A stretch of 64,000 bases of DNA from NCBI GenBank assembly GCA_016793095.1, contig JAEUJQ010000037.1, positions 140,244-204,243 of the forward strand, read 5' to 3'. Under the pieces are notes generated by a model, which worked only from the letters and a program-made list of their open reading frames with translations, did not search any database and was not told where the DNA came from. This DNA comes from Myxococcaceae bacterium (GTDB lineage: Bacteria > Myxococcota > Myxococcia > Myxococcales > Myxococcaceae). How positions within the stretch are numbered: the first letter of the stretch is position 1; each line of letters begins with the position of its first letter. The translations under genes were made by a program, and so were the position numbers. Shown here in pieces: positions 19,388 through 56,738 of the stretch.

Positions 19388-21013
19388 TCACTCGTAGGGG
19401 TTCGTCTCGTCCACCGTCAGCTTGCCGCCCTTCTTGCCCGTGGGCGGGGGTCTGCCGGTCTTCGGCTCCTTCGGCTGCTTCACCCCGTCGGGCTGCGCGG
19501 GACCTCCGCCAGCGGCGGCGACGAGGCGCTCGAGCGTGAACGTCTCCTCGCGGGGGACGTCGAACGACACGTTCAGCGTGCGGGCCTCGTGCCCCTGCGC
19601 CGACGCGATGACGGAGAGCGAGGTGCCCTTCTCGCGCGTGACGGTGACCGGGTTGCCCTCGAGCTTCTCGCCGTCCACCTCGAAGCGCGTCGAGGGGGGC
19701 TCGGCCTTCAGCGTCACCGCGACGCTGACGGGGACGGCGGGCTTCGGCGGCTCGGGCGCCTTCGGGGTCCGGTCGGGAGGCTCTGACGCCTTCGCGGGGA
19801 GCTTCACCACCACGGGCTCGTCTTCGCTCTTGCCGAGCGCGAGGAAGAGGCCGGCGCCGACGATGAGGCCCACCGCAGCGATGGCGACGCCGATGACGAG
19901 GCCAGACCGGCTCGCGGGCGGCGCGTCATCGACCGACTCCAGCGAGGTCGCGGAGCGCTGCGAGGGCGGCGGAGTCTTCGCGCGGCGAGCCGGTGAGCGT
20001 GGGGCGGGCTCCTCGTCCATCGTCTGCGCGGCGGGCGTCTTCGCGACGGAGCTCCGACGTCCCGGGGAGGTGCCCGGCAGGCGGGCGGGGCCGGAAGGAG
20101 GCCTCGGCGTTCCGCCAGAGACGGTGCGTGCGCCGGCCTCCTGCGCGATGTCGTAGAGCGTGGAGAGGTCGCCCGGCTTCACCAGGGCCTGCAGCGACTC
20201 CTTCACCTTTGTCGCGTCTCTCGGGCGGCGCTCCGGCTCCTTCACCAGCAGCGAGTCGACGAAGGCGCAGAGCTTCGCGGGCAGGTCAGGGCGCACGGTG
20301 CCGAGCGGGTCGTGCTCTTCCTTGAGCAGCTTGGCGAGCGTGGCGATGTCGCTGTCGGCGTCGTACGGGGCGCGGCCGCCGAGCAGCTCATAGAGCACGG
20401 CGCCCACCGAGTAGAGGTCGGCGCCGGGTCCGAGCGTCTTCTGTCCGAGCACCTGCTCAGGCGCCATGTACTTGGGTGTGCCGACGGCCGTGCCCGAGTG
20501 CGTGAGGCCCGTGGACTGGCCGAAGCGGGAGATGCCGAAGTCGAGCAGCTTCACCAGCCGCTGCGGCCGGGTGCAGAGGAAGATGTTGGCGGGCTTGATG
20601 TCGCGGTGAATGACGTTGGCGGTGTGCGCGGCGGCGAGGGCGTCGAGCAGGGGGCTGATGATGCCGACCGCCTCGGCTGGCGCGAAGACGCCGTGCTTCT
20701 TGTAGACGGCCTTCAGCGTCGCGCCCTCGAGGTACTCCATGACGATGAAGGGCTCGCCGTCGTCCGTCTCGCCCATGTCGAGCACGTCGACGATGCCGGG
20801 GTGGTTGATGACGGCCGCGGCGCGGGCCTCGAGCTCGAAGCGCTTCAGCACGTCGTCCCGGTCCGCGAGGTCGGCGATGAGCACCTTGATGGCGACGCGC
20901 CGGCCGATGGCCCTGTTGGTCGCCGAGTACACGGCGCCCATGCCGCCTTTCCCGAGCACGCCATCGATGAGGTACTTGCCGGCGAACGTGGTGCCGGCCT
21001 CGAGGACTGTCAC
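19388..21013 (-). CDS. Ser/Thr protein kinase (Hanks type) with a Pro-rich linker, a TM helix and a C-terminal PEGA-like domain.
   Basis: GKGGMGAVY, VAIKVL, HRDIKPANIFL, DFGIS, GTPKYMAPE. Then a P/S/A-rich segment, a TM helix (LVIGVAIAAVGLIVGAGLFLAL) and a PEGA-like C-terminus. Confidence 0.9.
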   Translation of the reverse strand: MTVLEAGTTFAGKYLIDGVLGKGGMGAVYSATNRAIGRRVAIKVLIADLADRDDVLKRFELEARAAAVINHPGIVDVLDMGETDDGEPFIVMEYLEGATLKAVYKKHGVFAPAEAVGIISPLLDALAAAHTANVIHRDIKPANIFLCTRPQRLVKLLDFGISRFGQSTGLTHSGTAVGTPKYMAPEQVLGQKTLGPGADLYSVGAVLYELLGGRAPYDADSDIATLAKLLKEEHDPLGTVRPDLPAKLCAFVDSLLVKEPERRPRDATKVKESLQALVKPGDLSTLYDIAQEAGARTVSGGTPRPPSGPARLPGTSPGRRSSVAKTPAAQTMDEEPAPRSPARRAKTPPPSQRSATSLESVDDAPPASRSGLVIGVAIAAVGLIVGAGLFLALGKSEDEPVVVKLPAKASEPPDRTPKAPEPPKPAVPVSVAVTLKAEPPSTRFEVDGEKLEGNPVTVTREKGTSLSVIASAQGHEARTLNVSFDVPREETFTLERLVAAAGGGPAQPDGVKQPKEPKTGRPPPTGKKGGKLTVDETNPYE

Positions 21014-21450
21014 GACGAGGAGTGTACCCCACGAGGGGCGGCCGTCTCGTTCGGCGGTGGCTGATCACCGGGCGCATCCCACATTCGCGGCTCGCACGGG
21101 CGCGTCGTCTTCACGCCCGCAACTCGACGACGAAGCCCGCGTCCAGGTTGATCCCGCACGACCGTGGAGGTGGACCGAGTCGCGGGCCGAACCTGCCGAA
21201 TGGGCCGACCGGCGCGCCGGCCACGTCGTCAATGGTTCGGAGTACCCGGACGAGGGCCGCACCGCAGCAGTCCACGCGAGCTGGCGAAGCTGACTGCCGA
21301 GAAGGCGGCTCCAGGCGAGGGACCAGGTGTTCCAGGACTGGAACCCGCTCGAGACCGCGCGGCAGAAGGCCGCCCCCGGGGGACACCCCATGCCCTCCGC
21401 AGGAGACACGGCTCCTGTCGGGCTCACCTCGAGGAGCCCCCACGCGGCTG

Positions 21451-21688
21451 GAGGGTGGGCTGCGGAGCTCGTGAGGGTGGGTTGCGGAGCTCGTGAGGGT
21501 GGGTTGCGGGGCTCGTGAGGGTGGGCTGCGGAGCTCGTGAGGGTGGGTTGCGGAGCTCGTGAGGGTGGGTTGCGGAGCTCGTGAGGGTGGGTTGCGGAGC
21601 TCGCGAGGGTGGGTTGCGGAGCTCGTGAGGGTGGGCTGCGGAGCTCGTGAGGGTGGGTTGCGGAGCTCGTGAGAGTGGGTTGCGGAGC
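21451..21688. repeat. Perfect or near-perfect tandem array of a 22-bp unit GAGGGTGGG(T/C)TGCGGAGCTCGT, about 10.8 copies, in a 1.3-kb divergent intergenic region.
   Basis: Read directly. Units differ only by C/T at position 10 and rare single substitutions. The array is followed by the 12-bp perfect palindrome GTGCACGTGCAC (about 21696..21707). No spacers are present, so this is not CRISPR. Confidence 0.9.
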
Positions 21689-21778
21689 GTGGGGGTGCAC
21701 GTGCACCGCGCCCTCAACTGATGTGAGCGGAAGCGCCCGAACGCACGGTCGGCGGCGCGTGCCCGGGCCGCGAGTCCT

Positions 21779-21815
21779 GCAATTCGTTGCGCCCGCCAAC
21801 ATTGTGCAGGACTCG
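21779..21815. repeat. Copy 1 of a dispersed 36-bp direct repeat pair (ATTCGTTGCGCCCGCCAACATTGTGCAGGACTCG).
   Basis: A second copy with 4 mismatches (GATTCGTTGCCGCCTCCAACATTCTGCAGGACTCG) lies about 124 bp downstream. Both are intergenic. Confidence 0.8.
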
Positions 21816-21902
21816 TGACGCCCGATCACCGCAGGCGCTCGCGCCCGCCGCACCACGCGACGCCTTCCGCAGGAGGAGCGGCTGTGGTCGTCGGGAGCCC
21901 GG

Positions 21903-21940
21903 CGATTCGTTGCCGCCTCCAACATTCTGCAGGACTCGCG
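21903..21940. repeat. Copy 2 of the 36-bp direct repeat pair.
   Basis: See copy 1. The sequences were compared by eye. Confidence 0.8.
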
Positions 21941-22340
21941 GTGGGCTCAGCCCGCCACCTGTGACGTACCGCGGTCGACAGTGGGAGAGGGCGTCACCCG
22001 ACGAGGTGGCGCGGCTGACAGGGTACGCCACGGGGCGGGAGATGCTGCAGGCCAACGCCGCGTTGCCCAGGCGGGATGAGTGGGTGGAGAAGCGGGCCAA
22101 GGCCCTCGTCGAGGAGCTGGGAGGGCGCAGGGAAGTGGTTCCAGAATCCGGTAGGCGCCTCGCAGCACTGAGCAGCGCGTGCGGACGGGTGCAGTCTCCT
22201 ATGGCTCTTCTGCCGGGCGAGGGCCCTGAGCGTCGCGTCGAGGGGCCTGACGTGACAGGGGGCGCTGGCCCGCGACGAGCGCTTCCGGGAACCAACGCAT
22301 GCCTGCAAGTGAGCGCGGGTTGCGGCATAAGGCGCGCGTC

Positions 22341-23270
22341 ATGCGTGGCTTCGCTGTCCTCTGCTTGCTCCTCACGGCCTGCGCCGCGAGCGACATCCGC
22401 GTTCCCGACGAGCACGTGGTCGCCGGATCGCGCGCGAAGGGTCGCGGCGTCGAGGTCTGTGTGCTGATGCAGGAGCGCTGGCCCCGCGCGCGCTTCGAAG
22501 GTGTCGCTGAGCTCTCGTTCGCGCGGTGGGACTACGGCATCGCCTCGGTCCTCGTGAAGCACCCCGACGGCCTCGTCGTCATCGACCCGGCGTTCGGCCG
22601 CGACGTGGTGCGGGACCTCGCGCGCGCGCCGATGCTGTTCCGCCTGGCCATGGGGCCGACACGGCTCAAGCGCCCCCTGCGAGACGTGATGGAGGAGGCC
22701 GGCCTCGACCCTGAGGCGGTGACGGTCGCGCTGCCGACGCACGTGCACTGGGACCACGTGGGCGCGCTGGGCGACCTGCCGAACGCCCGCGTGCTCCTGC
22801 CGCGCGCCGAGCTCGAGTGGGCCAACACCCTGAAGGGCTATCTGGACGGCGGCGCGATGCCGCACCACCTCGCCCGCGCGAAGGAGCGGCTGCGCCTGTA
22901 CGAGTTCGACGGCCCGGCGCGTGACGGCTTCCCGTCGTCCTTCGACGTCTTCAACGACGGCTCGATCGTCGCCGTCCCCCTGCCGGGCCACACGCCCGGG
23001 CACACTGCGTTCCTCGTGAAGCTCGTGGACGGCCGCTCCGCCCTCTTCGTGGGTGACGCCTCCTGGGCAATGCGCGGCGTCGAGGCGCCGGTGCACAAGC
23101 TGATTCCCCTCGACCACGACCACGCCCAGACGGGGGAGTCGCTCGGGCTCCTGCACGCCCTGTGGCAGCACCGGAAGGACGTGCTCGTCATCCCCGCGCA
23201 CGACGCTGCCGCCCACGACCAGCTGCCCTCGTGCGTCCCGCCGCCGGCGCCCGGCACGGTGACGCGATGA
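22341..23270 (+). CDS. Metallo-beta-lactamase-fold hydrolase lipoprotein (lactonase/MBL superfamily).
   Basis: Lipoprotein signal MRGFAVLCLLLTAC. MBL motifs HVHWDHVG (HxHxDH), ...LPGHTPGHTAF..., FVGDASW. ORF 22299..23270, with an internal ATG at 22341. Confidence 0.85.
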   Translation: MRGFAVLCLLLTACAASDIRVPDEHVVAGSRAKGRGVEVCVLMQERWPRARFEGVAELSFARWDYGIASVLVKHPDGLVVIDPAFGRDVVRDLARAPMLFRLAMGPTRLKRPLRDVMEEAGLDPEAVTVALPTHVHWDHVGALGDLPNARVLLPRAELEWANTLKGYLDGGAMPHHLARAKERLRLYEFDGPARDGFPSSFDVFNDGSIVAVPLPGHTPGHTAFLVKLVDGRSALFVGDASWAMRGVEAPVHKLIPLDHDHAQTGESLGLLHALWQHRKDVLVIPAHDAAAHDQLPSCVPPPAPGTVTR

Positions 23271-23540
23271 CCACACTCGCCCACGAGCCGACGTCGACCG
23301 TGACTGCCCGCCTGAACGGTGACGCAATGACGGTACTCGCCAGGCAGAAGCCGACATCGACCGTGACTCCCGCCCCCACGGTGACGCGATGACGACACCC
23401 GCCGCCCACGAGCCGACGGCGACCGTGACTGCCCGCCGGCACGGTGACGGCGCCTGGCTCGCGCCGCTCGCAGGACACGACCATCGGGAACGGGCGCGCC
23501 TCCTCCGACGGGCGGCACGGTGACGCGATGACGACGCTCG
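23254..23540. repeat. About 62-bp tandem repeat (3 full + 1 degenerate copies). Each copy is a miniature gene junction (…ACGGTGACGCG-ATGA-CGAC…), ending at the real start of the metal-binding protein gene.
   Basis: The units begin CACGGTGACGCGATGAC(C/G)AC(A/G)C.CGCC...GAGCCGAC.TCGACCGTGACTGCCCGCC. The first copy overlaps the stop of the MBL gene. The last copy is the true ATG (MTTLACLALL...). Confidence 0.85.
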
Positions 23541-24364
23541 CCTGCCTCGCGCTCCTCACCGCCGCGCCGCTCAAGGTGGGCGTCACCCTGCACCCGTACT
23601 TCTCGTGGACCTCGCAGGTGACGAAGGGGCTGCCCGTCGAGGTGGTGCCGGTGGTGCCGGGCGACGTCGACGTCGGCAGCTACCAGCCGCGCCCGCAGGA
23701 CGTGGCCGTGCTCACGACGCTCGACGTGCTGGTGGAGAACGGCCTGGGCCACGACGCGTTCCTCGACGAAATGGTGCGCGCGGCCGGCAACCCCCGCCTC
23801 GTGCGGGTGCGGCTCAACGAGGCCACGCCGCGGCTGGTGACGAAGGACGGCGACGGGCCGAACTCGCACACGTTCCTCTCGCTCGGCAACGCGATGGCCC
23901 AGTCGTACACGCTGGCGCGCGCGCTCGCCGAGGTGCGACCCGACTGGCGGCGGCAGCTCGAGGCCAACGCCGCGACGTATGCGAAGCGGCTCCGGACGCT
24001 GCGGGCGGGCGCGGTGCGGGCCCTCGCGCCGGTGAAGGAGCGCCGCGTCGTCACCGTGCATGACGGCTACTCGTACCTGCTTCAGGAGCTGGGCCTCGAG
24101 CTGGCCGCAGTCGTAGAGCCTGCGCACGGGCTCTTGCCGTCGGCCGGCGAGCTGGCCGAGGTGGTGAGGCTGCTCCAGGCGAAGCAGGCCCGGGTGGTGT
24201 TCTCGGAAGAGTCGTTCCCGCCGGCGATGGCCGAGGTGCTGCGCGAGGCGGGCGCGCAGGTGGTGGTGGTGAGCCACATCGCGACCGGCGACTTCACGCC
24301 CGAGCGCTTCGAGGTGGAGCTGCAGCAGAACCTCGACGCCATCATCGGAGCGATGACGCGATGA
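23527..24364 (+). CDS. Metal (Zn/Mn) ABC transporter periplasmic substrate-binding protein, ZnuA/TroA (cluster A-I) family.
   Basis: Signal MTTLACLALLTAAPL. LHPYFSW, DVGSYQPRPQDVAVL, DVLVENGLGHD, HTFLS, VVTVHDGYSYLLQELGLE, AKQARVVFSEE. These are typical of the ZnuA/TroA family. The Zn-versus-Mn specificity cannot be decided. Confidence 0.8.
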
Positions 24365-24690
24365 CGACCGTGCTGTCGGCGCAGCAGGTGGCGGTGGCCG
24401 ACTCCACGCCCGAGCGCTGCGGAAGTGGAGCTGCAGCAGAACCTCGACGCCATCATCGGAGCGATGACGCGATGACGACCGCGCTGTCGGCGCAGCAGGT
24501 GGTCGGCGCCTCCACGCCCGAGCGCTTCGAGGTGGAGTTGCAGCAGAACCTCGACGCCATCATCGGAGCGATGACGCGATGACGACCGCGCTGTCGGCGC
24601 AGCAGGTGGTCGGCGCCTCCACGCCCGAGCGCTTCGAGATGGAGCTGCAGCAGAACCTCGACGCCGTCATCGGAGCGATGACGCGATGAC
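24290..24690. repeat. Tandem array (111 + 107 + 107 bp, then the authentic copy) duplicating the junction between the substrate-binding-protein gene 3' end and the ABC ATPase gene 5' end.
   Basis: Unit: ACGACCGCGCTGTCGGCGCAGCAGGTGGTCGGCGCCTCCACGCCCGAGCGCTTCGAGGTGGAGTTGCAGCAGAACCTCGACGCCATCATCGGAGCGATGACGCGATG. Each unit encodes a 36-aa chimeric mini-ORF (MTTALSAQQVVGAS+TPERFEVELQQNLDAIIGAMTR) whose TGA overlaps the next ATG (ATGA). Confidence 0.85.
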
Positions 24691-25294
24691 GACCGTGCTG
24701 TCGGCGCAGCGGGTGGCGGTGGCGGGCCGGCTCGCGCCGCTGTCCCTCACGCTGTCGCCCGGCGACGTGCACGCGCTGGTCGGGCCGAACGGGTGCGGCA
24801 AGTCGACGTTCCTGGACTGCGTCCTGGGGCTGCAGCCCTTCGACGGAACGCTCTCGCTCCTCGACGGGATGACGGTGGCCATGGTGCCGCAGGCCTTCAC
24901 GGGCTCCTCGACCTCGGCCGTTACCGTGCTCGAGCTCCTCGCTGCCTCGCGCACCACCCGGCCCTCGTGGCTCGGCCTGTCCGCCCGGGTCCGCCAGCAG
25001 TGCCTCGACGCCCTGGCGTTGACGAACGCGGCCGGTCTGGCCCCGGCGCGGCTGGCGACGCTCTCAGGTGGGGAGCTTCGCCGGGTCCTCCTGGCCGACG
25101 CGCTGGCGAAGCGGCCGGGCCTGCTGCTGCTGGACGAGCCCGAGGCCGGCCTCGATGACGCCTCTCGCGTGACGCTCGAGCGGGCGCTGACGGACGCCCG
25201 CGCATCGGGAGTGACGACCCTGTGGGTCTCGCACGACGCTGCCGCCGTGCAGCGGCTCGCGACGCACACCACGCGGGTGGGAGCGCCGGCATGA
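24686..25294 (+). CDS. ABC transporter ATP-binding protein (ZnuC-like).
   Basis: Walker A GPNGCGKST, signature LSGGELRR, Walker B LLLLDEPEAGLD, H-loop VSHD. ATGA overlap with the permease gene. Confidence 0.8.
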   Translation: MTTVLSAQRVAVAGRLAPLSLTLSPGDVHALVGPNGCGKSTFLDCVLGLQPFDGTLSLLDGMTVAMVPQAFTGSSTSAVTVLELLAASRTTRPSWLGLSARVRQQCLDALALTNAAGLAPARLATLSGGELRRVLLADALAKRPGLLLLDEPEAGLDDASRVTLERALTDARASGVTTLWVSHDAAAVQRLATHTTRVGAPA

Positions 25295-26115
25295 ACGAGT
25301 TGTTGGCGCTCGACTTCGTGAAGCGCGCGCTCCTCGCGGTGCTGCTGGCGGCGCCGATGCTGGGGTTGTTGTCTCCGCTCGTCCTCTCGCGGCGGCTCGC
25401 CTTCTTCTCGGCTGCGCTGGGGCAGGCCGTGCTCACTGGAGTGTCTCTGGGCATCCTCCTCGGAGAGCCCGCCGACGCGCCCTGGGCCAGCGTCTTCGGC
25501 TTCTCGCTGCTGTGCGGCGTGGGCCTCGTCTTCGTGCGCCGCCGCTCGTCGCTGCCGCCGGACACGCTGGTCGGCGTGCTGCTCGCCTTCACGCTCGGCC
25601 TCGGCGTGCTGCTGCTGGTGGTGGTGACGAAGCGCTTCAACGTGCACCAGCTCGAGGCGGTGATGTTCGGCTCGGTGCTGACGGTGACGCGGGCCGACCT
25701 CGTGGTGCTCGCGGTCGCGCTGGTGGTGGTGCTGGCGGGCCTCGTGCGCTTCCACAACGCCCTGCTGCTCGACGCCCTCGACGCCCGGGTGGCCGCCGCG
25801 GCGAAGCTGCCTTCGGCGGCGCTGGAGTACGGGCTGGTGGTGCTGCTCACCGTCGTCATCGTCGCCTCGGTGAAGGTGCTGGGCGCGTTGATGGTCGAGG
25901 CGATGCTGCTGGTGCCAGCGGCCGCGGGCCGGAACGTCGCCCGGAGCGTCGCGGGCCTCACCCTGGCGAGCGTGGTGGTGGCGTGCGTGAGCGCCGTCGG
26001 AGGCGTGCTCGTCTCTGCGCGCCTCAACGCGCCATCGGGCGCCGCCATCGTGCTGCTCCTCGCGGCGGCCTTCGTGCTGACGCTGCCGTTCTCGCGCCGA
26101 CATGAGTCGCGCTGA
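25291..26115 (+). CDS. ABC transporter permease (ZnuB/ABC-3 family).
   Basis: About 8 hydrophobic helices. The start MNELLALDFVKRALLAVLLAAPMLGLLSP is typical of ZnuB/MntB-type permeases. It uses an internal ATG of ORF 25222..26115. Confidence 0.8.
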   Translation: MNELLALDFVKRALLAVLLAAPMLGLLSPLVLSRRLAFFSAALGQAVLTGVSLGILLGEPADAPWASVFGFSLLCGVGLVFVRRRSSLPPDTLVGVLLAFTLGLGVLLLVVVTKRFNVHQLEAVMFGSVLTVTRADLVVLAVALVVVLAGLVRFHNALLLDALDARVAAAAKLPSAALEYGLVVLLTVVIVASVKVLGALMVEAMLLVPAAAGRNVARSVAGLTLASVVVACVSAVGGVLVSARLNAPSGAAIVLLLAAAFVLTLPFSRRHESR

Positions 26116-26389
26116 GCCGTCGAGCATGAGGTGGCTCGTCCACGCCGCAGTCGAACGGAGGGCCGTGGCGTTCCAGGCCCTCGCGTGAGGAGCGCAGCGG
26201 ACCGTGCGGGAGCTCCCGGCGCGGCCTGGGCGGCGGTCCGGCCCGGAAGCAGAAGCAAGACGCCGACGCAGGGCTGCGACGATGAGGCCGTGGACCGTGA
26301 GCAAGACATGCGGGAGCCGAGGCCCACGGGGATGGCTGGTGGGTGGTGCGCACGCCGGGACACGACGCCCCGCCCGGAGCGTGCACGGC

Positions 26390-26836
26390 TCAAGGAGCGA
26401 GGGCGGCGCCCGCCTCACTCCGCCACCACCCCAGCGCTGCGTCGAGGTTCTGCCTCGCCCGCTCGCTGAGCTGCTCGCCGAGGCCGAACTGCCACCCGCG
26501 AATCGCCAGCAGGCGCGCCCGCGGCGGCGGCTTGCCCGTCACCCGCTGGTAGACGGCCAGCAGCCCTCCCGGCGAGAGGTGGTGCGTCGAGACGGTGACG
26601 TGAGGCCCCGGCGTCAGCTCGAAGACCTCGAAGGGCTCCTTCCCCGAGGTGCTGGCGTCGACGAAGAGCACCTCGTCGCGGCCGACGAGGTCGAGCGCGT
26701 GCTCGGGCTGCAACTGGTAGTCGACGAGCATCTCGACGTCCGACCGCCGCGCCGCCTCTCCGACGAAGGCGGCCCCCAGGCCGTCGTCACCGCGCGAGGG
26801 GTTGCCCCAGCCGAACACGAGCACGCGCGCCTTCAT
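26390..26836 (-). CDS. hoxW: [NiFe]-hydrogenase maturation endopeptidase (HoxW/HybD family).
   Basis: VLVFGWGNPSRGDDGLGAAF (GNxxxxDDGxG metal-binding motif), ...HHLSP.... Size 148 aa. Immediately downstream of the large subunit, with an ATGA overlap. Confidence 0.8.
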   Translation of the reverse strand: MKARVLVFGWGNPSRGDDGLGAAFVGEAARRSDVEMLVDYQLQPEHALDLVGRDEVLFVDASTSGKEPFEVFELTPGPHVTVSTHHLSPGGLLAVYQRVTGKPPPRARLLAIRGWQFGLGEQLSERARQNLDAALGWWRSEAGAALAP

Positions 26837-40394: not shown

Positions 40395-40682
40395 GAACGC
40401 CGGGACACCACGAACGTCCCCGGTGTTCCGGGAATCGGCACGGGTCGTCTGCGGGCTTCCCCAGACGCCCAGCAAGCCGCGGGGTCGGCGAGCCCCACAC
40501 CGGGCGGAGCGCAGCAGGCGCCACACTCCGGGCAAAGGCCACCTTCCGTGCGGGAGGCTGAGACAACGCAGCTCCTCGCGCAGCGCTGCGGAACTCAACC
40601 CCAGCCTCGCGGCTTTCGTGTAGACGACGCCGCGCTCGCGCCCCTCGGGCCCCTCATCGAGCTCACCTCCCAGCTGGGCCTC

Positions 40683-40802
40683 GGCGGACGTCTCGGTGCC
40701 AGCGGCAAGGTGAAGTCGACCGCGCAGCGACGCGCGGCCTCGGCGGACGTCCCGGCGCCAGCGGCAAGGTGAAGTCCACCGCGCAGCGACGCGCGGCCTC
40801 GG
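40683..40802. repeat. 60-bp tandem duplication (2 copies, 4 mismatches) in the 5' region upstream of the vWA lipoprotein gene.
   Basis: CGGCGGACGTC(T/C)CGG(T/C)GCCAGCGGCAAGGTGAAGTC(G/C)ACCGCGCAGCGACGCGCGGCCT occurs twice back to back. Confidence 0.85.
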
Positions 40803-40816
40803 CGGGCGCGGCGAGC

Positions 40817-55230: not shown

Positions 55231-56738
55231 GCCGCGGGTTGCAGGGCGTCGGTGCGGGCGAACGCGAGGAAGACGTCTTCGAGGGAGAGGGACTCGATGA
55301 CGGTGCCCTCGGGCCAGACGGTGGACCGCCAGAGCTCCGGCGGCGCGCGCACGACGTCCCCACGAACGATCTCGAAGCCGGGCGGGAGCACGTGGGGCGC
55401 CACCAGCCCGGGAGCGGCGGACACGAGCCGCGGCTCGCCAGGAACCGGCGGGACGGCGGCGGCGGCAGGCTCCCCGGGGGCAATGCCGGTCTCGACGGCG
55501 GACGAGCCGATAGCGGACGACCCGCGCCCCGCCGGCTCACGTGCGGCCGACTCACGTGCGGCCGACTCACGTGCGGCCGGCTCACGTGCGGCCGACTCAC
55601 GTGCGGCCGACTCACGTGCGGCCGGCTCACGTGCGGCCGGCTCACCTGCGGCCGACTCACTAGCGACCGACTCACCTGCGGCCGACTCACCTGCGGCCGA
55701 CTCACCTGCGGCCGACTCACGTGCGGCCGACTCACCTGCGGCCGACTCACCTGCGGCCGACTCACGTGCGGCCGACTCACCTGCGGCCGACTCACCTGCG
55801 GCCGACTCACCTGCGGCCGACTCACGTGCGGCCGACTCACGTGCGGCCGGCTCACCTGCGGCCGACTCACGTGCGGCCGGCTCACCTTCGGCCGACTCAC
55901 CAGCGACCGACTCACGTGCGTCCGGCTCACCTTCGGCCGACTCGCTCATGGCCGACTCATTTGCAGCCGACCCGACCGCACCCGGGGCGACGGCGCGCGG
56001 CGCCACGGAAGCGGCTCGGGCATCGGGCGCCGGCCACCTCACGCGCCGCACCGACTCGAGCAGCCACGGCACCTCGCCCTCGATGCGCATCTTCCCCGAG
56101 TGGATGATGCCGACGCGGTGCGCGACCTGCTGCACCTCGTCCACCAGGTGCGACGAGAGGAACGCCGTGCAGCCGCGCTCCTTCACGATGACCGAGACGA
56201 GGTCATTGAACTCGCGGCGCGCGACCGGGTCGAGGCCGGTGGTGGGCTCGTCGAGCAGCAGCAGCTCGGGGCGCGGCGCCAGGGCGAGCGCGAGGCCCAG
56301 CTTGGTGCGCGTGCCGCCGGACAGCTCCATCGCGCGCTTGTCGAGCGGCACGTCGAGCAGCTTGCAGAGGCGCTCGAACTCCGGCCCGTCCCACGTCGGG
56401 TAGAAGCCCGCGACGAAGCGGCCCAGCTCGCGCCCGCTCATCCACGGGTAGAAGTGCTGCTCCTGCGAGACGGAGCCGATGCGCCGCTTCAGCTCGACCG
56501 GCACCTTCTTCACCTGCTGGCCGAGCACCTCGACCGTGCCCGCGTCCGCGTGCAGCACGCCGGTGAGGATGCGCAGCGTCGTCGTCTTGCCCGCGCCGTT
56601 GCGGCCGAGGAAGCCGTAGATCTCTCCGCGCTTCACCGCGAGCGAGAGGCCGTCGAGGGCGATGGCGCGCCCGAAGCGGCGCTTCACGTCGGTCAGCTTC
56701 AGGGCGTCGGTCACGCGCCGGAGTATGGGGGAGCCCAC
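55227..56738 (-). CDS. ABC transporter ATP-binding protein with a roughly 145-aa (A/G)ESA(A/R) pentapeptide-repeat insertion before the C-terminal EDVFL segment.
   Basis: Walker A GRNGAGKTT, Q-loop, signature LSGGTRTKL, Walker B LLLLDEPTTGLD, H-loop SSHL. The start is GTG near 56738 or 56713, which is uncertain. The ORF track merges it with upstream antisense artefact (55227..57911). Confidence 0.8.
   Translation of the reverse strand: MGSPILRRVTDALKLTDVKRRFGRAIALDGLSLAVKRGEIYGFLGRNGAGKTTTLRILTGVLHADAGTVEVLGQQVKKVPVELKRRIGSVSQEQHFYPWMSGRELGRFVAGFYPTWDGPEFERLCKLLDVPLDKRAMELSGGTRTKLGLALALAPRPELLLLDEPTTGLDPVARREFNDLVSVIVKERGCTAFLSSHLVDEVQQVAHRVGIIHSGKMRIEGEVPWLLESVRRVRWPAPDARAASVAPRAVAPGAVGSAANESAMSESAEGEPDARESVAGESAEGEPAARESAAGEPAARESAARESAAGESAAGESAAGESAARESAAGESAAGESAARESAAGESAAGESAAGESVASESAAGEPAAREPAARESAARESAAREPAARESAARESAAREPAGRGSSAIGSSAVETGIAPGEPAAAAVPPVPGEPRLVSAAPGLVAPHVLPPGFEIVRGDVVRAPPELWRSTVWPEGTVIESLSLEDVFLAFARTDALQPAA
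55531..55975. repeat. In-frame 15-bp tandem repeat (GCCGACTCAC(G/C)TGCG, about 29 copies) inside the ABC ATPase gene.
   Basis: Read directly. On the coding (minus) strand it encodes ...AGESAARESAAGESAAGESA.... Units vary at 1-2 positions (G/C and ggc/gac). Confidence 0.9.

Follow-up and report, generated by a model that had tools for sequence, protein, structure and literature searches.

How does a compact bacterial operon come to carry, between its genes, tandem copies of its own gene junctions, and what lets these copies persist? The question is raised by a stretch of 64 kb from a metagenome-assembled genome (MAG) of the Myxococcaceae, hereafter called the window (G+C 71.7%; all positions are in window coordinates). 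On its plus strand lies an operon of four genes, for a metallo-beta-lactamase-fold (MBL) hydrolase and for ZnuA-, ZnuC- and ZnuB-like proteins, and tandem arrays occupy two of its three junctions, MBL/znuA (array 1) and znuA/znuC (array 2). I find that the repeat units originate from the ends of the flanking genes, that short open reading frames (ORFs) within them link the genes into an unbroken chain, that the ancestral operon was compact, that junction duplications recur in sister lineages, and that the spacings which such duplications introduce are biased with respect to 3. The explanation that I consider probable is that the arrays are minisatellite duplications spanning a gene junction, which survive because both genes stay intact and their coupling is kept, resembling in action the MIRUs (mycobacterial interspersed repetitive units) while standing outside that family.

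An earlier note on this DNA had described tandem repeats of a miniature gene junction upstream of znuA, as three and a half copies of a unit of about 62 bp. The repetition is borne out, as Tandem Repeats Finder (TRF) reports a 62-bp unit in 3.3 copies at 23248-23449 (76% matches, score 243), and a repeat search locates 29-nt junction copies at 23251, 23311, 23373 and 23512, spaced by 60, 62 and 139 nt. However, the junction is actually present in five copies at 23248-23540, one of them degenerate. Copy 1 (23251..23279, plus strand, as are all the others; sequence CCGGCACGGTGACGCGATGACCACACTCG; repeat family D2 and frame map) holds, as the note had it, the true stop of the MBL gene, TGA 23268-23270, which is overlapped by an ATG at 23267. 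In copy 2 (23311..23339) the ATG at 23327 is read in frame inside the first short ORF and the junction has mutated to GCAATGACGG, while copy 3 (23373..23401) provides the start of the second short ORF. Copy 4, at about 23436-23460 (CGGCACGGTGACGGCGCC...), is the degenerate one and has lost its ATG. Copy 5 (23512..23540), found by the repeat search, is functional and carries the true znuA start, ATG 23528; the note was right on this as well, for the same start is used in NCBI protein P0001 (278 amino acids, 100% identity) and in all close homologues. A long-form unit at 23444-23530 on the plus strand aligns with the MBL 3' end and with a 92-nt duplicate in a relative (L161). Throughout array 1 the units can be aligned with the MBL 3' end, starting at CACGAC, and with ATGACGAC(G/A)CTCGCC of znuA, each comprising the last 18 or so MBL codons and the first 5-13 or so znuA codons; the MBL C-terminus itself can be aligned to the orthologues of L161, L164 and L166. 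A ZnuA extended at its N-terminus from GTG 23444 is ruled out, the closest homologues having 277-278 amino acids (matches down to about 74% identity); it is also contradicted by the conserved M(T/S)(T/S)L(A/V)C site, which, or whose counterpart, is the gene start in the lineages walked below.

The second array occupies the next junction of the same operon and was absent from the earlier note. At 24286..24716 on the plus strand, TRF finds a 107-bp unit in 4.0 copies (93% matches, score 735), with junction copies at 24345, 24456, 24563 and 24670, spaced by 111, 107 and 107 nt. Each unit is made of the last 23 codons of znuA and the first 13 of znuC, and when aligned with the single znuA/znuC junctions of L164 and L161 the copies reach a mean column identity of 92%. 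Because the units of both arrays align to the gene ends that flank them, they were built in place and not from an imported repeat. The stop/start overlaps of the two arrays moreover share a 15-mer, TGACGCGATGACGAC, which occurs 7 times in them at one mismatch or fewer; in the whole window, at two mismatches or fewer, there are 8 hits where 0.47 are expected and none of 100 shuffles reaches 8, so that the junction repetition is real and not a chance pattern.

The arrays retain very different lengths of exact repetition. The longest exact repeat in array 1 is 20 nt; homologous unequal exchange needs a minimal length of homology, and 20 nt is probably below it, too short for efficient exchange, so that array 1 is probably an old and largely frozen repeat. 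Array 2 is younger and better preserved; since it keeps an exact repeat of 100 nt it is still able to change by unequal exchange, its copy number is uncertain and it may still vary. The idea that array 1 is a slippage-prone contingency locus, one of the possibilities raised in the earlier note, is not supported, and that of an assembly artefact there is rejected: with copies about 76% alike and no exact repeat above 20 nt, array 1 is no longer prone to slippage, and the units of 60-107 bp are of minisatellite size, not the simple-sequence tracts of 1-9 nt. Switching on and off by frame is equally discounted, for the junction motif, TGAcgcgATGA, presents a TGA in two frames and its ATG in the third, and spacings of 60, 111 and 139 nt are tolerated.

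Could the arrays be absent from the organism altogether, errors of assembly or replication that collapse to single junctions? The metagenome-assembled source and the restriction of the arrays to one contig lend this some weight, as does the 100-nt exact repeat of array 2, at which copy number may have been mis-assembled. However, the copies of array 1 differ by substitutions and indels, each copy of array 2 has private variants, including a 4-nt insertion, and analogous duplications were recovered in a sister lineage from three independent samples. An artefact should consist of exact repeats that match the k-mers or reads in length and whose copies lack private variants, which is not what is found; only the copy number of array 2 is in doubt, and I regard an artefact as very improbable.

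What do the arrays do to the reading of the operon? The earlier note had proposed a chain of short, coupled ORFs upstream of znuA. A chain linked by stops and starts is indeed present, but it consists of two such relay ORFs, not three, and its last hand-off has no overlap. Relay ORF 1 (23267..23392, plus strand; 41 amino acids, MTTLAHEPTSTVTARLNGDAMTVLARQKPTSTVTPAPTVTR) contains junction copy 2, reads through the ATG at 23327 in frame, overlaps its neighbours by ATGA at both ends and has no Pfam match; its stop, TGA 23390, overlaps the ATG at 23389. There relay ORF 2 begins (23389..23523, plus strand; 44 amino acids), in copy 3, crosses the degenerate copy 4 and the long-form unit, and stops at TGA 23521-23523, 4 nt before the znuA ATG at 23528. 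In array 2 the hand-offs are at znuA TGA 24362/ATG 24361, TGA 24580/ATG 24579 and TGA 24687/ATG 24686. Relay ORF 3 (24361..24582, plus strand; 73 amino acids) consists of two units fused by the 4-nt insertion, with ATGA overlaps at both ends, and is annotated by NCBI as hypothetical protein JNJ54_14990; relay ORF 4 (24579..24689, plus strand; 36 amino acids, MTTALSAQQVVGA + STPERFEMELQQNLDAVIGAMTR), also with ATGA overlaps at both ends, is the ZnuC N-terminus fused in frame to the ZnuA C-terminus. The result is an unbroken chain of eight ORFs, from MBL through 41 and 44 amino acids to ZnuA, and through 73 and 36 amino acids to ZnuC and ZnuB, joined by six ATGA overlaps and one TGA-N4-ATG. At every step the ORFs are co-oriented and stop and start overlap or are nearly adjacent, the geometry of termination-reinitiation. 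As the junction motif stops two frames beside an ATG whose frame, the third, is that of the gene, the indels behind the spacings of 60, 111 and 139 nt leave the chain intact.

The starts within the arrays differ in their predicted Shine-Dalgarno pairing. At the three upstream copies of the znuA type it amounts to -3.0 to -3.8 kcal/mol, against -5.8 at the true start, and this near-absence of pairing fits a presumed dependence of these starts on coupling; each copy of the znuC type, in array 2, has GGAG 9 nt upstream of its ATG. An explanation at the level of RNA was considered and rejected, as the arrays have no match in Rfam at E<=1 and their folding is not unusual (z-score -0.13 for array 1 and -1.79 for array 2). 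In 21000-26500 a scan for sigma-70-type sites gave no promoter-like site, and terminator-like matches lie only inside znuB, none in the arrays.

The short ORFs might instead be there for their products, for instance metal-responsive leader peptides or membrane peptides. One of them, of 73 amino acids, is annotated as a hypothetical protein, and their codon usage, inherited from the parent genes, would suit such a role. However, conservation of the peptides is seen neither between copies nor between lineages, the reading frame of homologous DNA changing from copy to copy and one array 2 unit being frameshifted, and none of the mini-ORFs has a Pfam match; functional small proteins are thus a most unlikely account of the arrays.

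The ancestral state was sought among relatives. By ZnuA protein, 160 homologous loci were fetched from genome and metagenome collections, and closer relatives, at 95, 93, 91 and 88% ZnuA identity, were found by protein search and their contigs retrieved, giving about 170 loci in total. TRF detects no junction array in the 160 loci. The closest of them have single ATGA or GTGA junctions, and in the close relatives the overlaps are mostly of 4 nt. Two TRF hits near znuA were set aside: that of L042, a weak one, comes from a 45-nt repeat within znuC, and that of L149 is an intergenic repeat after a terminal znuA, where there is no gene junction. The latter, on an unrelated metagenome contig (3807-4104), is a 79-nt unit in 3.8 copies of 99% identity that begins exactly at the stop of the znuA homologue.

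The closer relatives differ junction by junction. Where the window (ZnuA 100%) has three extra copies and one degenerate copy at MBL/znuA (two relay ORFs), three extra copies at znuA/znuC (two relay ORFs) and a single ATGA at znuC/znuB (znuC TGA 25292, znuB ATG 25291), L161/L162 (95%) have at MBL/znuA a 92-nt duplicate with an ORF of 31 amino acids that joins the ZnuA N-terminus to the MBL C-terminus, a single znuA/znuC junction, and at znuC/znuB a 110-nt duplicate with an ORF of 37 amino acids that joins the ZnuB N-terminus to the ZnuC C-terminus. All three junctions are single in L164/L165 (93%) and in L169/L170 (76%). L172 (91%) has single junctions at MBL/znuA and znuA/znuC, its znuC/znuB lying beyond the contig, and L166/L167 (88%) have single junctions at these two and a 119-nt spacer with an ORF of 40 amino acids at znuC/znuB. 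Overlapping junctions only, wherever present, are found in L164/L165, L169/L170, L001-L006 and L009, and the short contigs of L172 and L168 contain only one or two of the junctions, which are single. Among more distant Myxococcaceae, L007 and L008 have spacers at MBL/znuA and znuA/znuC, and L010, L013 and L014 have them at znuC/znuB. From this distribution the ancestral operon MBL-znuA-znuC-znuB, as reconstructed, is shown to have been compact, with 4-nt overlaps (ATGA or GTGA) at its three junctions.

Copy number at the junctions thus differs between sister lineages, a comparison that the earlier note had proposed: those at 88-95% ZnuA identity have 0, 1 or 3 extra copies, at different junctions. 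L161 and L162, from different samples and runs, are identical over 3195 nt, and L163, from a third run, differs from L161 at 6 of 1604 sites and has the same znuC/znuB duplicate; as they were recovered from three independent samples, the sister-lineage duplications are real DNA. L161 and L163, the only near-identical pair, agree in structure, and none of the loci retrieved came from a second strain of the species to which the window belongs. A sequence variant, GGTGACGCGATGA, is present only in the second copy in L161 and in all copies in the window.

Some spacers in the wider set are not repetitive. Those of L010 (5242-5529), L013 (7214-7396), L014 (7433-7576) and L086 (2786-3016; known from a crude junction scan only) are each spanned by one ORF, of 47-95 amino acids, that overlaps both neighbours. 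In L013 and L014 a residual similarity to the 3' end of the upstream gene can be seen by eye (unscored), suggesting that these spacers may be aged junction duplications. The odd spacer at 23444-23511 of the window was also tried as a homologue of the L007/L008 spacers, to which it has a marginal match of 17 nt; none of 300 shuffles reaches its score, yet the score is only one point above the best shuffle, and the spacer seems better explained as a degenerate unit of the long form.

If coupling matters, the spacers should leave a mark in their lengths. I walked the relay of ORFs mechanically through 16 lineages, and every start lies between -5 and +2 nt from the previous stop, mostly in an NTGA overlap; the exception is the TGA-N4-ATG of the window, which the walk bridged through a GTG ORF of 3 codons. 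In each of the ten spacers that a single ORF bridges, this ORF overlaps both neighbours, and the start-to-start spacings (92, 110, 119, 173, 44, 188, 128, 140, 179 and 284 nt) are without exception 2 mod 3. Counting six of the 6-10 independent events, the chance of this is at most (1/3)^6 = 0.0014. Only in this class, 2 mod 3, does an ORF that opens at the stop of one gene close at the start of the following one. With 0 mod 3, residues would be added to the downstream protein, and the ZnuA N-terminus is very short; with 1 mod 3, ribosomes would be carried over the start in the wrong frame. The pattern suggests that selection filters the duplications for those that keep translational coupling, from which it would follow that the mini-ORFs are translated.

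The proposed course of events, junction-spanning duplication under such a filter, may be set out as follows. Microhomology or slippage during replication, and then unequal exchange, would have given rise to a tandem duplication across a junction, first at MBL/znuA and again, more recently, at znuA/znuC, and the duplications would then have been re-amplified; the joint of array 2, read directly from the sequence, lies at a microhomology of the GGC/GGCG type, and the source genome is rich in minisatellites. Amplification with partial homogenisation, of which the GGTGACGCGATGA variant may be an example, would have been followed by internal in-frame deletions and decay. In each such duplication the upstream gene would still end in the first of the 3' copies and the downstream gene would still begin with the last of the 5' copies, and because an intact copy of each gene end remains, a duplication across the junction would be the only small one that a compact operon can bear. 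With a period of 2 mod 3, an extra copy becomes a mini-ORF in which the first codons of the downstream gene are fused in frame to the last codons of the upstream gene, and which would begin on the upstream stop and end on the next start. Ribosomes leaving MBL would be handed on by termination-reinitiation through relay ORFs 1 and 2 to znuA, and through relay ORFs 3 and 4 to znuC and znuB. I propose that the arrays persist because coupling is kept, and not because the peptides matter; the net effect on the output of ZnuA and ZnuC/B would probably be small, neutral to mildly attenuating.

MIRUs are dispersed over many loci. They form a family of short repeats in many mycobacteria, apparently mobile, which insert at start codons and carry a coupled ORF at -4 spacing (PMC12548453); an example is given by the units of 77 and 53 bp between senX3 and regX3 of M. 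tuberculosis, whose number differs between strains (PMC4213456). PMC12548453 cites Supply et al. 1997 for them. The likeness to the present arrays is considerable. In both, tandem units of tens of bp lie between co-oriented operon genes (here 62 and 107 bp, for a range of about 40-100 bp), and each unit has a short ORF with a 4-nt overlap of stop and start, here ATGA at 23267, 23389, 24361, 24579 and 24686, with one TGA-N4-ATG. The coupled ORF of a MIRU means that its insertion has little polar effect (PMC12548453), and copy number, which differs between strains in MIRUs (PMC4213456), differs here between lineages. Unlike MIRUs, however, the arrays show no dispersed, apparently mobile consensus, their units occurring nowhere else in the 64-kb window, and were built in place from their own flanking genes; they are set beside MIRUs by the description of the latter, and because the host is a Myxococcaceae MAG, membership of that family by descent is very unlikely.

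Are the arrays, then, a mobile element of the MIRU kind that has inserted at the znuA and znuC start codons with a coupled ORF of its own? The architecture is that of MIRUs, whose ORF is coupled to its target gene at -4 spacing (PMC12548453), and an identical 15-mer stands at two different junctions. However, the units are the 3' and 5' ends of the flanking genes themselves, and the units differ between sister lineages, matching in each case the junction at which they lie. The 15-mer occurs in relatives only at junctions of this operon and in the window outside the arrays only once, with one mismatch, inside a coding region, and the single, ancestral znuA/znuC junction of L164 already contains most of it (ATGACGCGATGACGAC). 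I therefore give an inserted mobile element hardly any credence.

Several points do weigh against junction-spanning duplication kept by coupling. The exact 15-mer is common to two different types of junction (window 23260-23535 and 24354-24693), and the ancestral similarity, an 11-mer GCGATGACGAC that is already shared in L164 (5827-5841), explains it only in part; it may stem from ectopic gene conversion between the junctions, from selection on the context of re-initiation, or from chance. As the indel-derived spacings of 60, 111 and 139 nt are tolerated, the constraint to 2 mod 3 is not absolute. The selective filter, the translation of the mini-ORFs and the dependence of the downstream genes on them are read only from comparative patterns, and the arrays of the window are known from a single MAG contig. 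Finally, a crude scan of the fetched GC-rich sequence covered 193 compact junctions of long ORFs and gave no recognisable duplicates outside this operon; such recurrence at one operon hints at positive selection or at a local mutational hot spot.

Positive selection leads to a different answer to the opening question, in which the number of relay units is itself selected and still variable, as in variable-number tandem repeats (VNTRs), and sets the ratios of MBL to ZnuA to ZnuC/ZnuB as an adaptive translational rheostat. Each hand-off would pass on part of the ribosome flux, the units with GGAG may add ribosomes, and a change of copy number would be a heritable tuning of the importer. Duplications are found at all three junctions of this operon in several lineages and recognisable duplicates are absent from every other junction, both in the 64-kb window and around the loci that were fetched, the 100-nt exact repeat of array 2 permits unequal exchange, and GGAG lies 9 nt upstream of the ATG in every unit of that array; there is also precedent in M. 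tuberculosis, where MIRU and other tandem-repeat loci differ in copy number between strains in or beside operons (PMC4213456, PMC12817950). On the other hand, the copies of array 1, with 20 nt as the longest exact repeat, have diverged too far for their number still to change, the near-identical L161 and L163 share their structure so that no polymorphism within a species is seen, and the spacers of older lineages (L010, L013, L014) have decayed to non-repetitive relay ORFs, which looks like neutral ageing and not like maintained tuning. I consider a rheostat of this kind unlikely, if worth keeping in mind. The broader proposal, that these junctions are a natural, evolvable rheostat and at the same time a view of the birth of a MIRU-like element, the duplications arising repeatedly, being selected to set the subunit ratios of the importer through a ribosome relay of several steps, and then ageing into non-repetitive relay ORFs and intergenic spacers, I regard as doubtful.

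Junction-spanning duplication with coupling preserved also touches on other known systems. Overlaps of the ATGA or TGATG type are the geometry of gene pairs coupled by termination-reinitiation (PMC6728339; PMC12548453), and all junctions of this operon, those with mini-ORFs included, are of ATGA/GTGA or TGATG geometry; the known cases, however, join two real genes, whereas here up to two apparently non-functional ORFs per junction would form a relay of several steps. Short ORFs for the delivery of ribosomes, and synthetic bicistronic designs, are mentioned in PMC12548453 (its refs 75 and 78). The mini-ORFs may be likened to these by analogy, as short ORFs that would only pass a terminating ribosome to the next start, but they are natural, have arisen by duplication and stand in tandem, and their role in delivery is putative. 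Bacterial minisatellites or VNTRs can affect expression, as do promoter tandem repeats of M. tuberculosis (PMC12817950). With units of tens to about 100 bp, and with array 2 homogeneous enough to expand or contract, the present arrays are comparable; those repeats, however, lie in promoters or coding sequences, whereas these lie across stop/start junctions and would act, if at all, in translation. In the literature searched, the coverage of which is incomplete, I found nothing specific on junction-derived intercistronic repeats or relay arrays outside mycobacteria, which is weak evidence of novelty. The arrays are a locally generated form of intercistronic tandem repeats with coupled ORFs, and the local generation is the new part.

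To my knowledge, the origin of MIRU-type intercistronic repeats is unsettled, and the present arrays offer a plausible origin in situ. They also provide comparative sequence evidence that coupling constrains how an operon can change, as the small duplications seen span the stop/start overlap with a period of 2 mod 3. The lineages supply a natural series of constructs, in which three junctions bear 0, 1 or 3 relay units, and these could serve to measure the efficiency of the hand-off through serial ATGA overlaps. For annotation they advise caution, since short hypothetical proteins between operon genes, such as JNJ54_14990, can be fusions of duplicated gene ends. If the doubtful proposal of an evolvable rheostat were true and general in Myxococcota, spacers, small ORFs and a translation that is tunable by copy number would enter compact operons by a route so far unrecognised.

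The genes that the chain connects, all on the plus strand, have G+C contents at third codon positions (GC3) of 0.92-0.96. The MBL gene, the first of the operon (22299..23270), matches Pfam Lactamase_B at E=7.4e-18 (GC3 0.92); the gene for the ZnuA-like substrate-binding protein (23528..24364) matches ZnuA at E=1.4e-40 (GC3 0.96); that for the ZnuC-like ABC ATPase (24686..25294) matches ABC_tran at E=5.7e-21, with Walker A, signature, Walker B and H-loop visible in the translation; and that for the ZnuB-like ABC-3 permease (25291..26115) matches ABC-3 at E=6.2e-46. With matches to PF01297, PF00005 and PF00950 far beyond the cut-offs, the operon is predicted to encode a metal importer of the ZnuABC type (cluster A-I / ABC-3), the label 'Znu-like' assigning no metal specificity. 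ZnuC of the window has only about 80% protein identity to its closest relatives, L161 and L164, where ZnuA and ZnuB have 93-95%, and the gene trees conflict, znuA joining the window with L161 and MBL, znuC and znuB joining L161 with L164. As the trees disagree and the identity of ZnuC is lower, this suggests that recombination may have occurred within the operon.

The window contains other repeats. In the gap of about 1.2 kb that separates the MBL gene from a divergent gene for a Ser/Thr kinase, and that measures only about 200 nt in L161, lies a 22-bp minisatellite, GAGGGTGGGTTGCGGAGCTCGT, in about 11 copies of 95% identity (21451-21688, or more widely 21407-21736). Also upstream of the MBL gene are two direct repeats of 47 nt, 123 nt apart and 83% identical (21769-21815 and 21892-21938), which contain ...ATTCGTTGC...CCAACATT.TGCAGGACTCG. 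A tandem repeat of 59 bp in 2.2 copies at 40677-40805 (95% identical) contains GGTGAAGTC; it was ruled out as a plus-strand junction, despite its GTGA and its period of 2 mod 3, as it lies upstream of a gene on the minus strand or within the 5' end of that gene. A 15-bp array of GGCCGACTCAC(G/C)TGC at 55531-55943, in 27.5 copies of 90% identity, is intergenic and lies beside the 5' end of a minus-strand gene.

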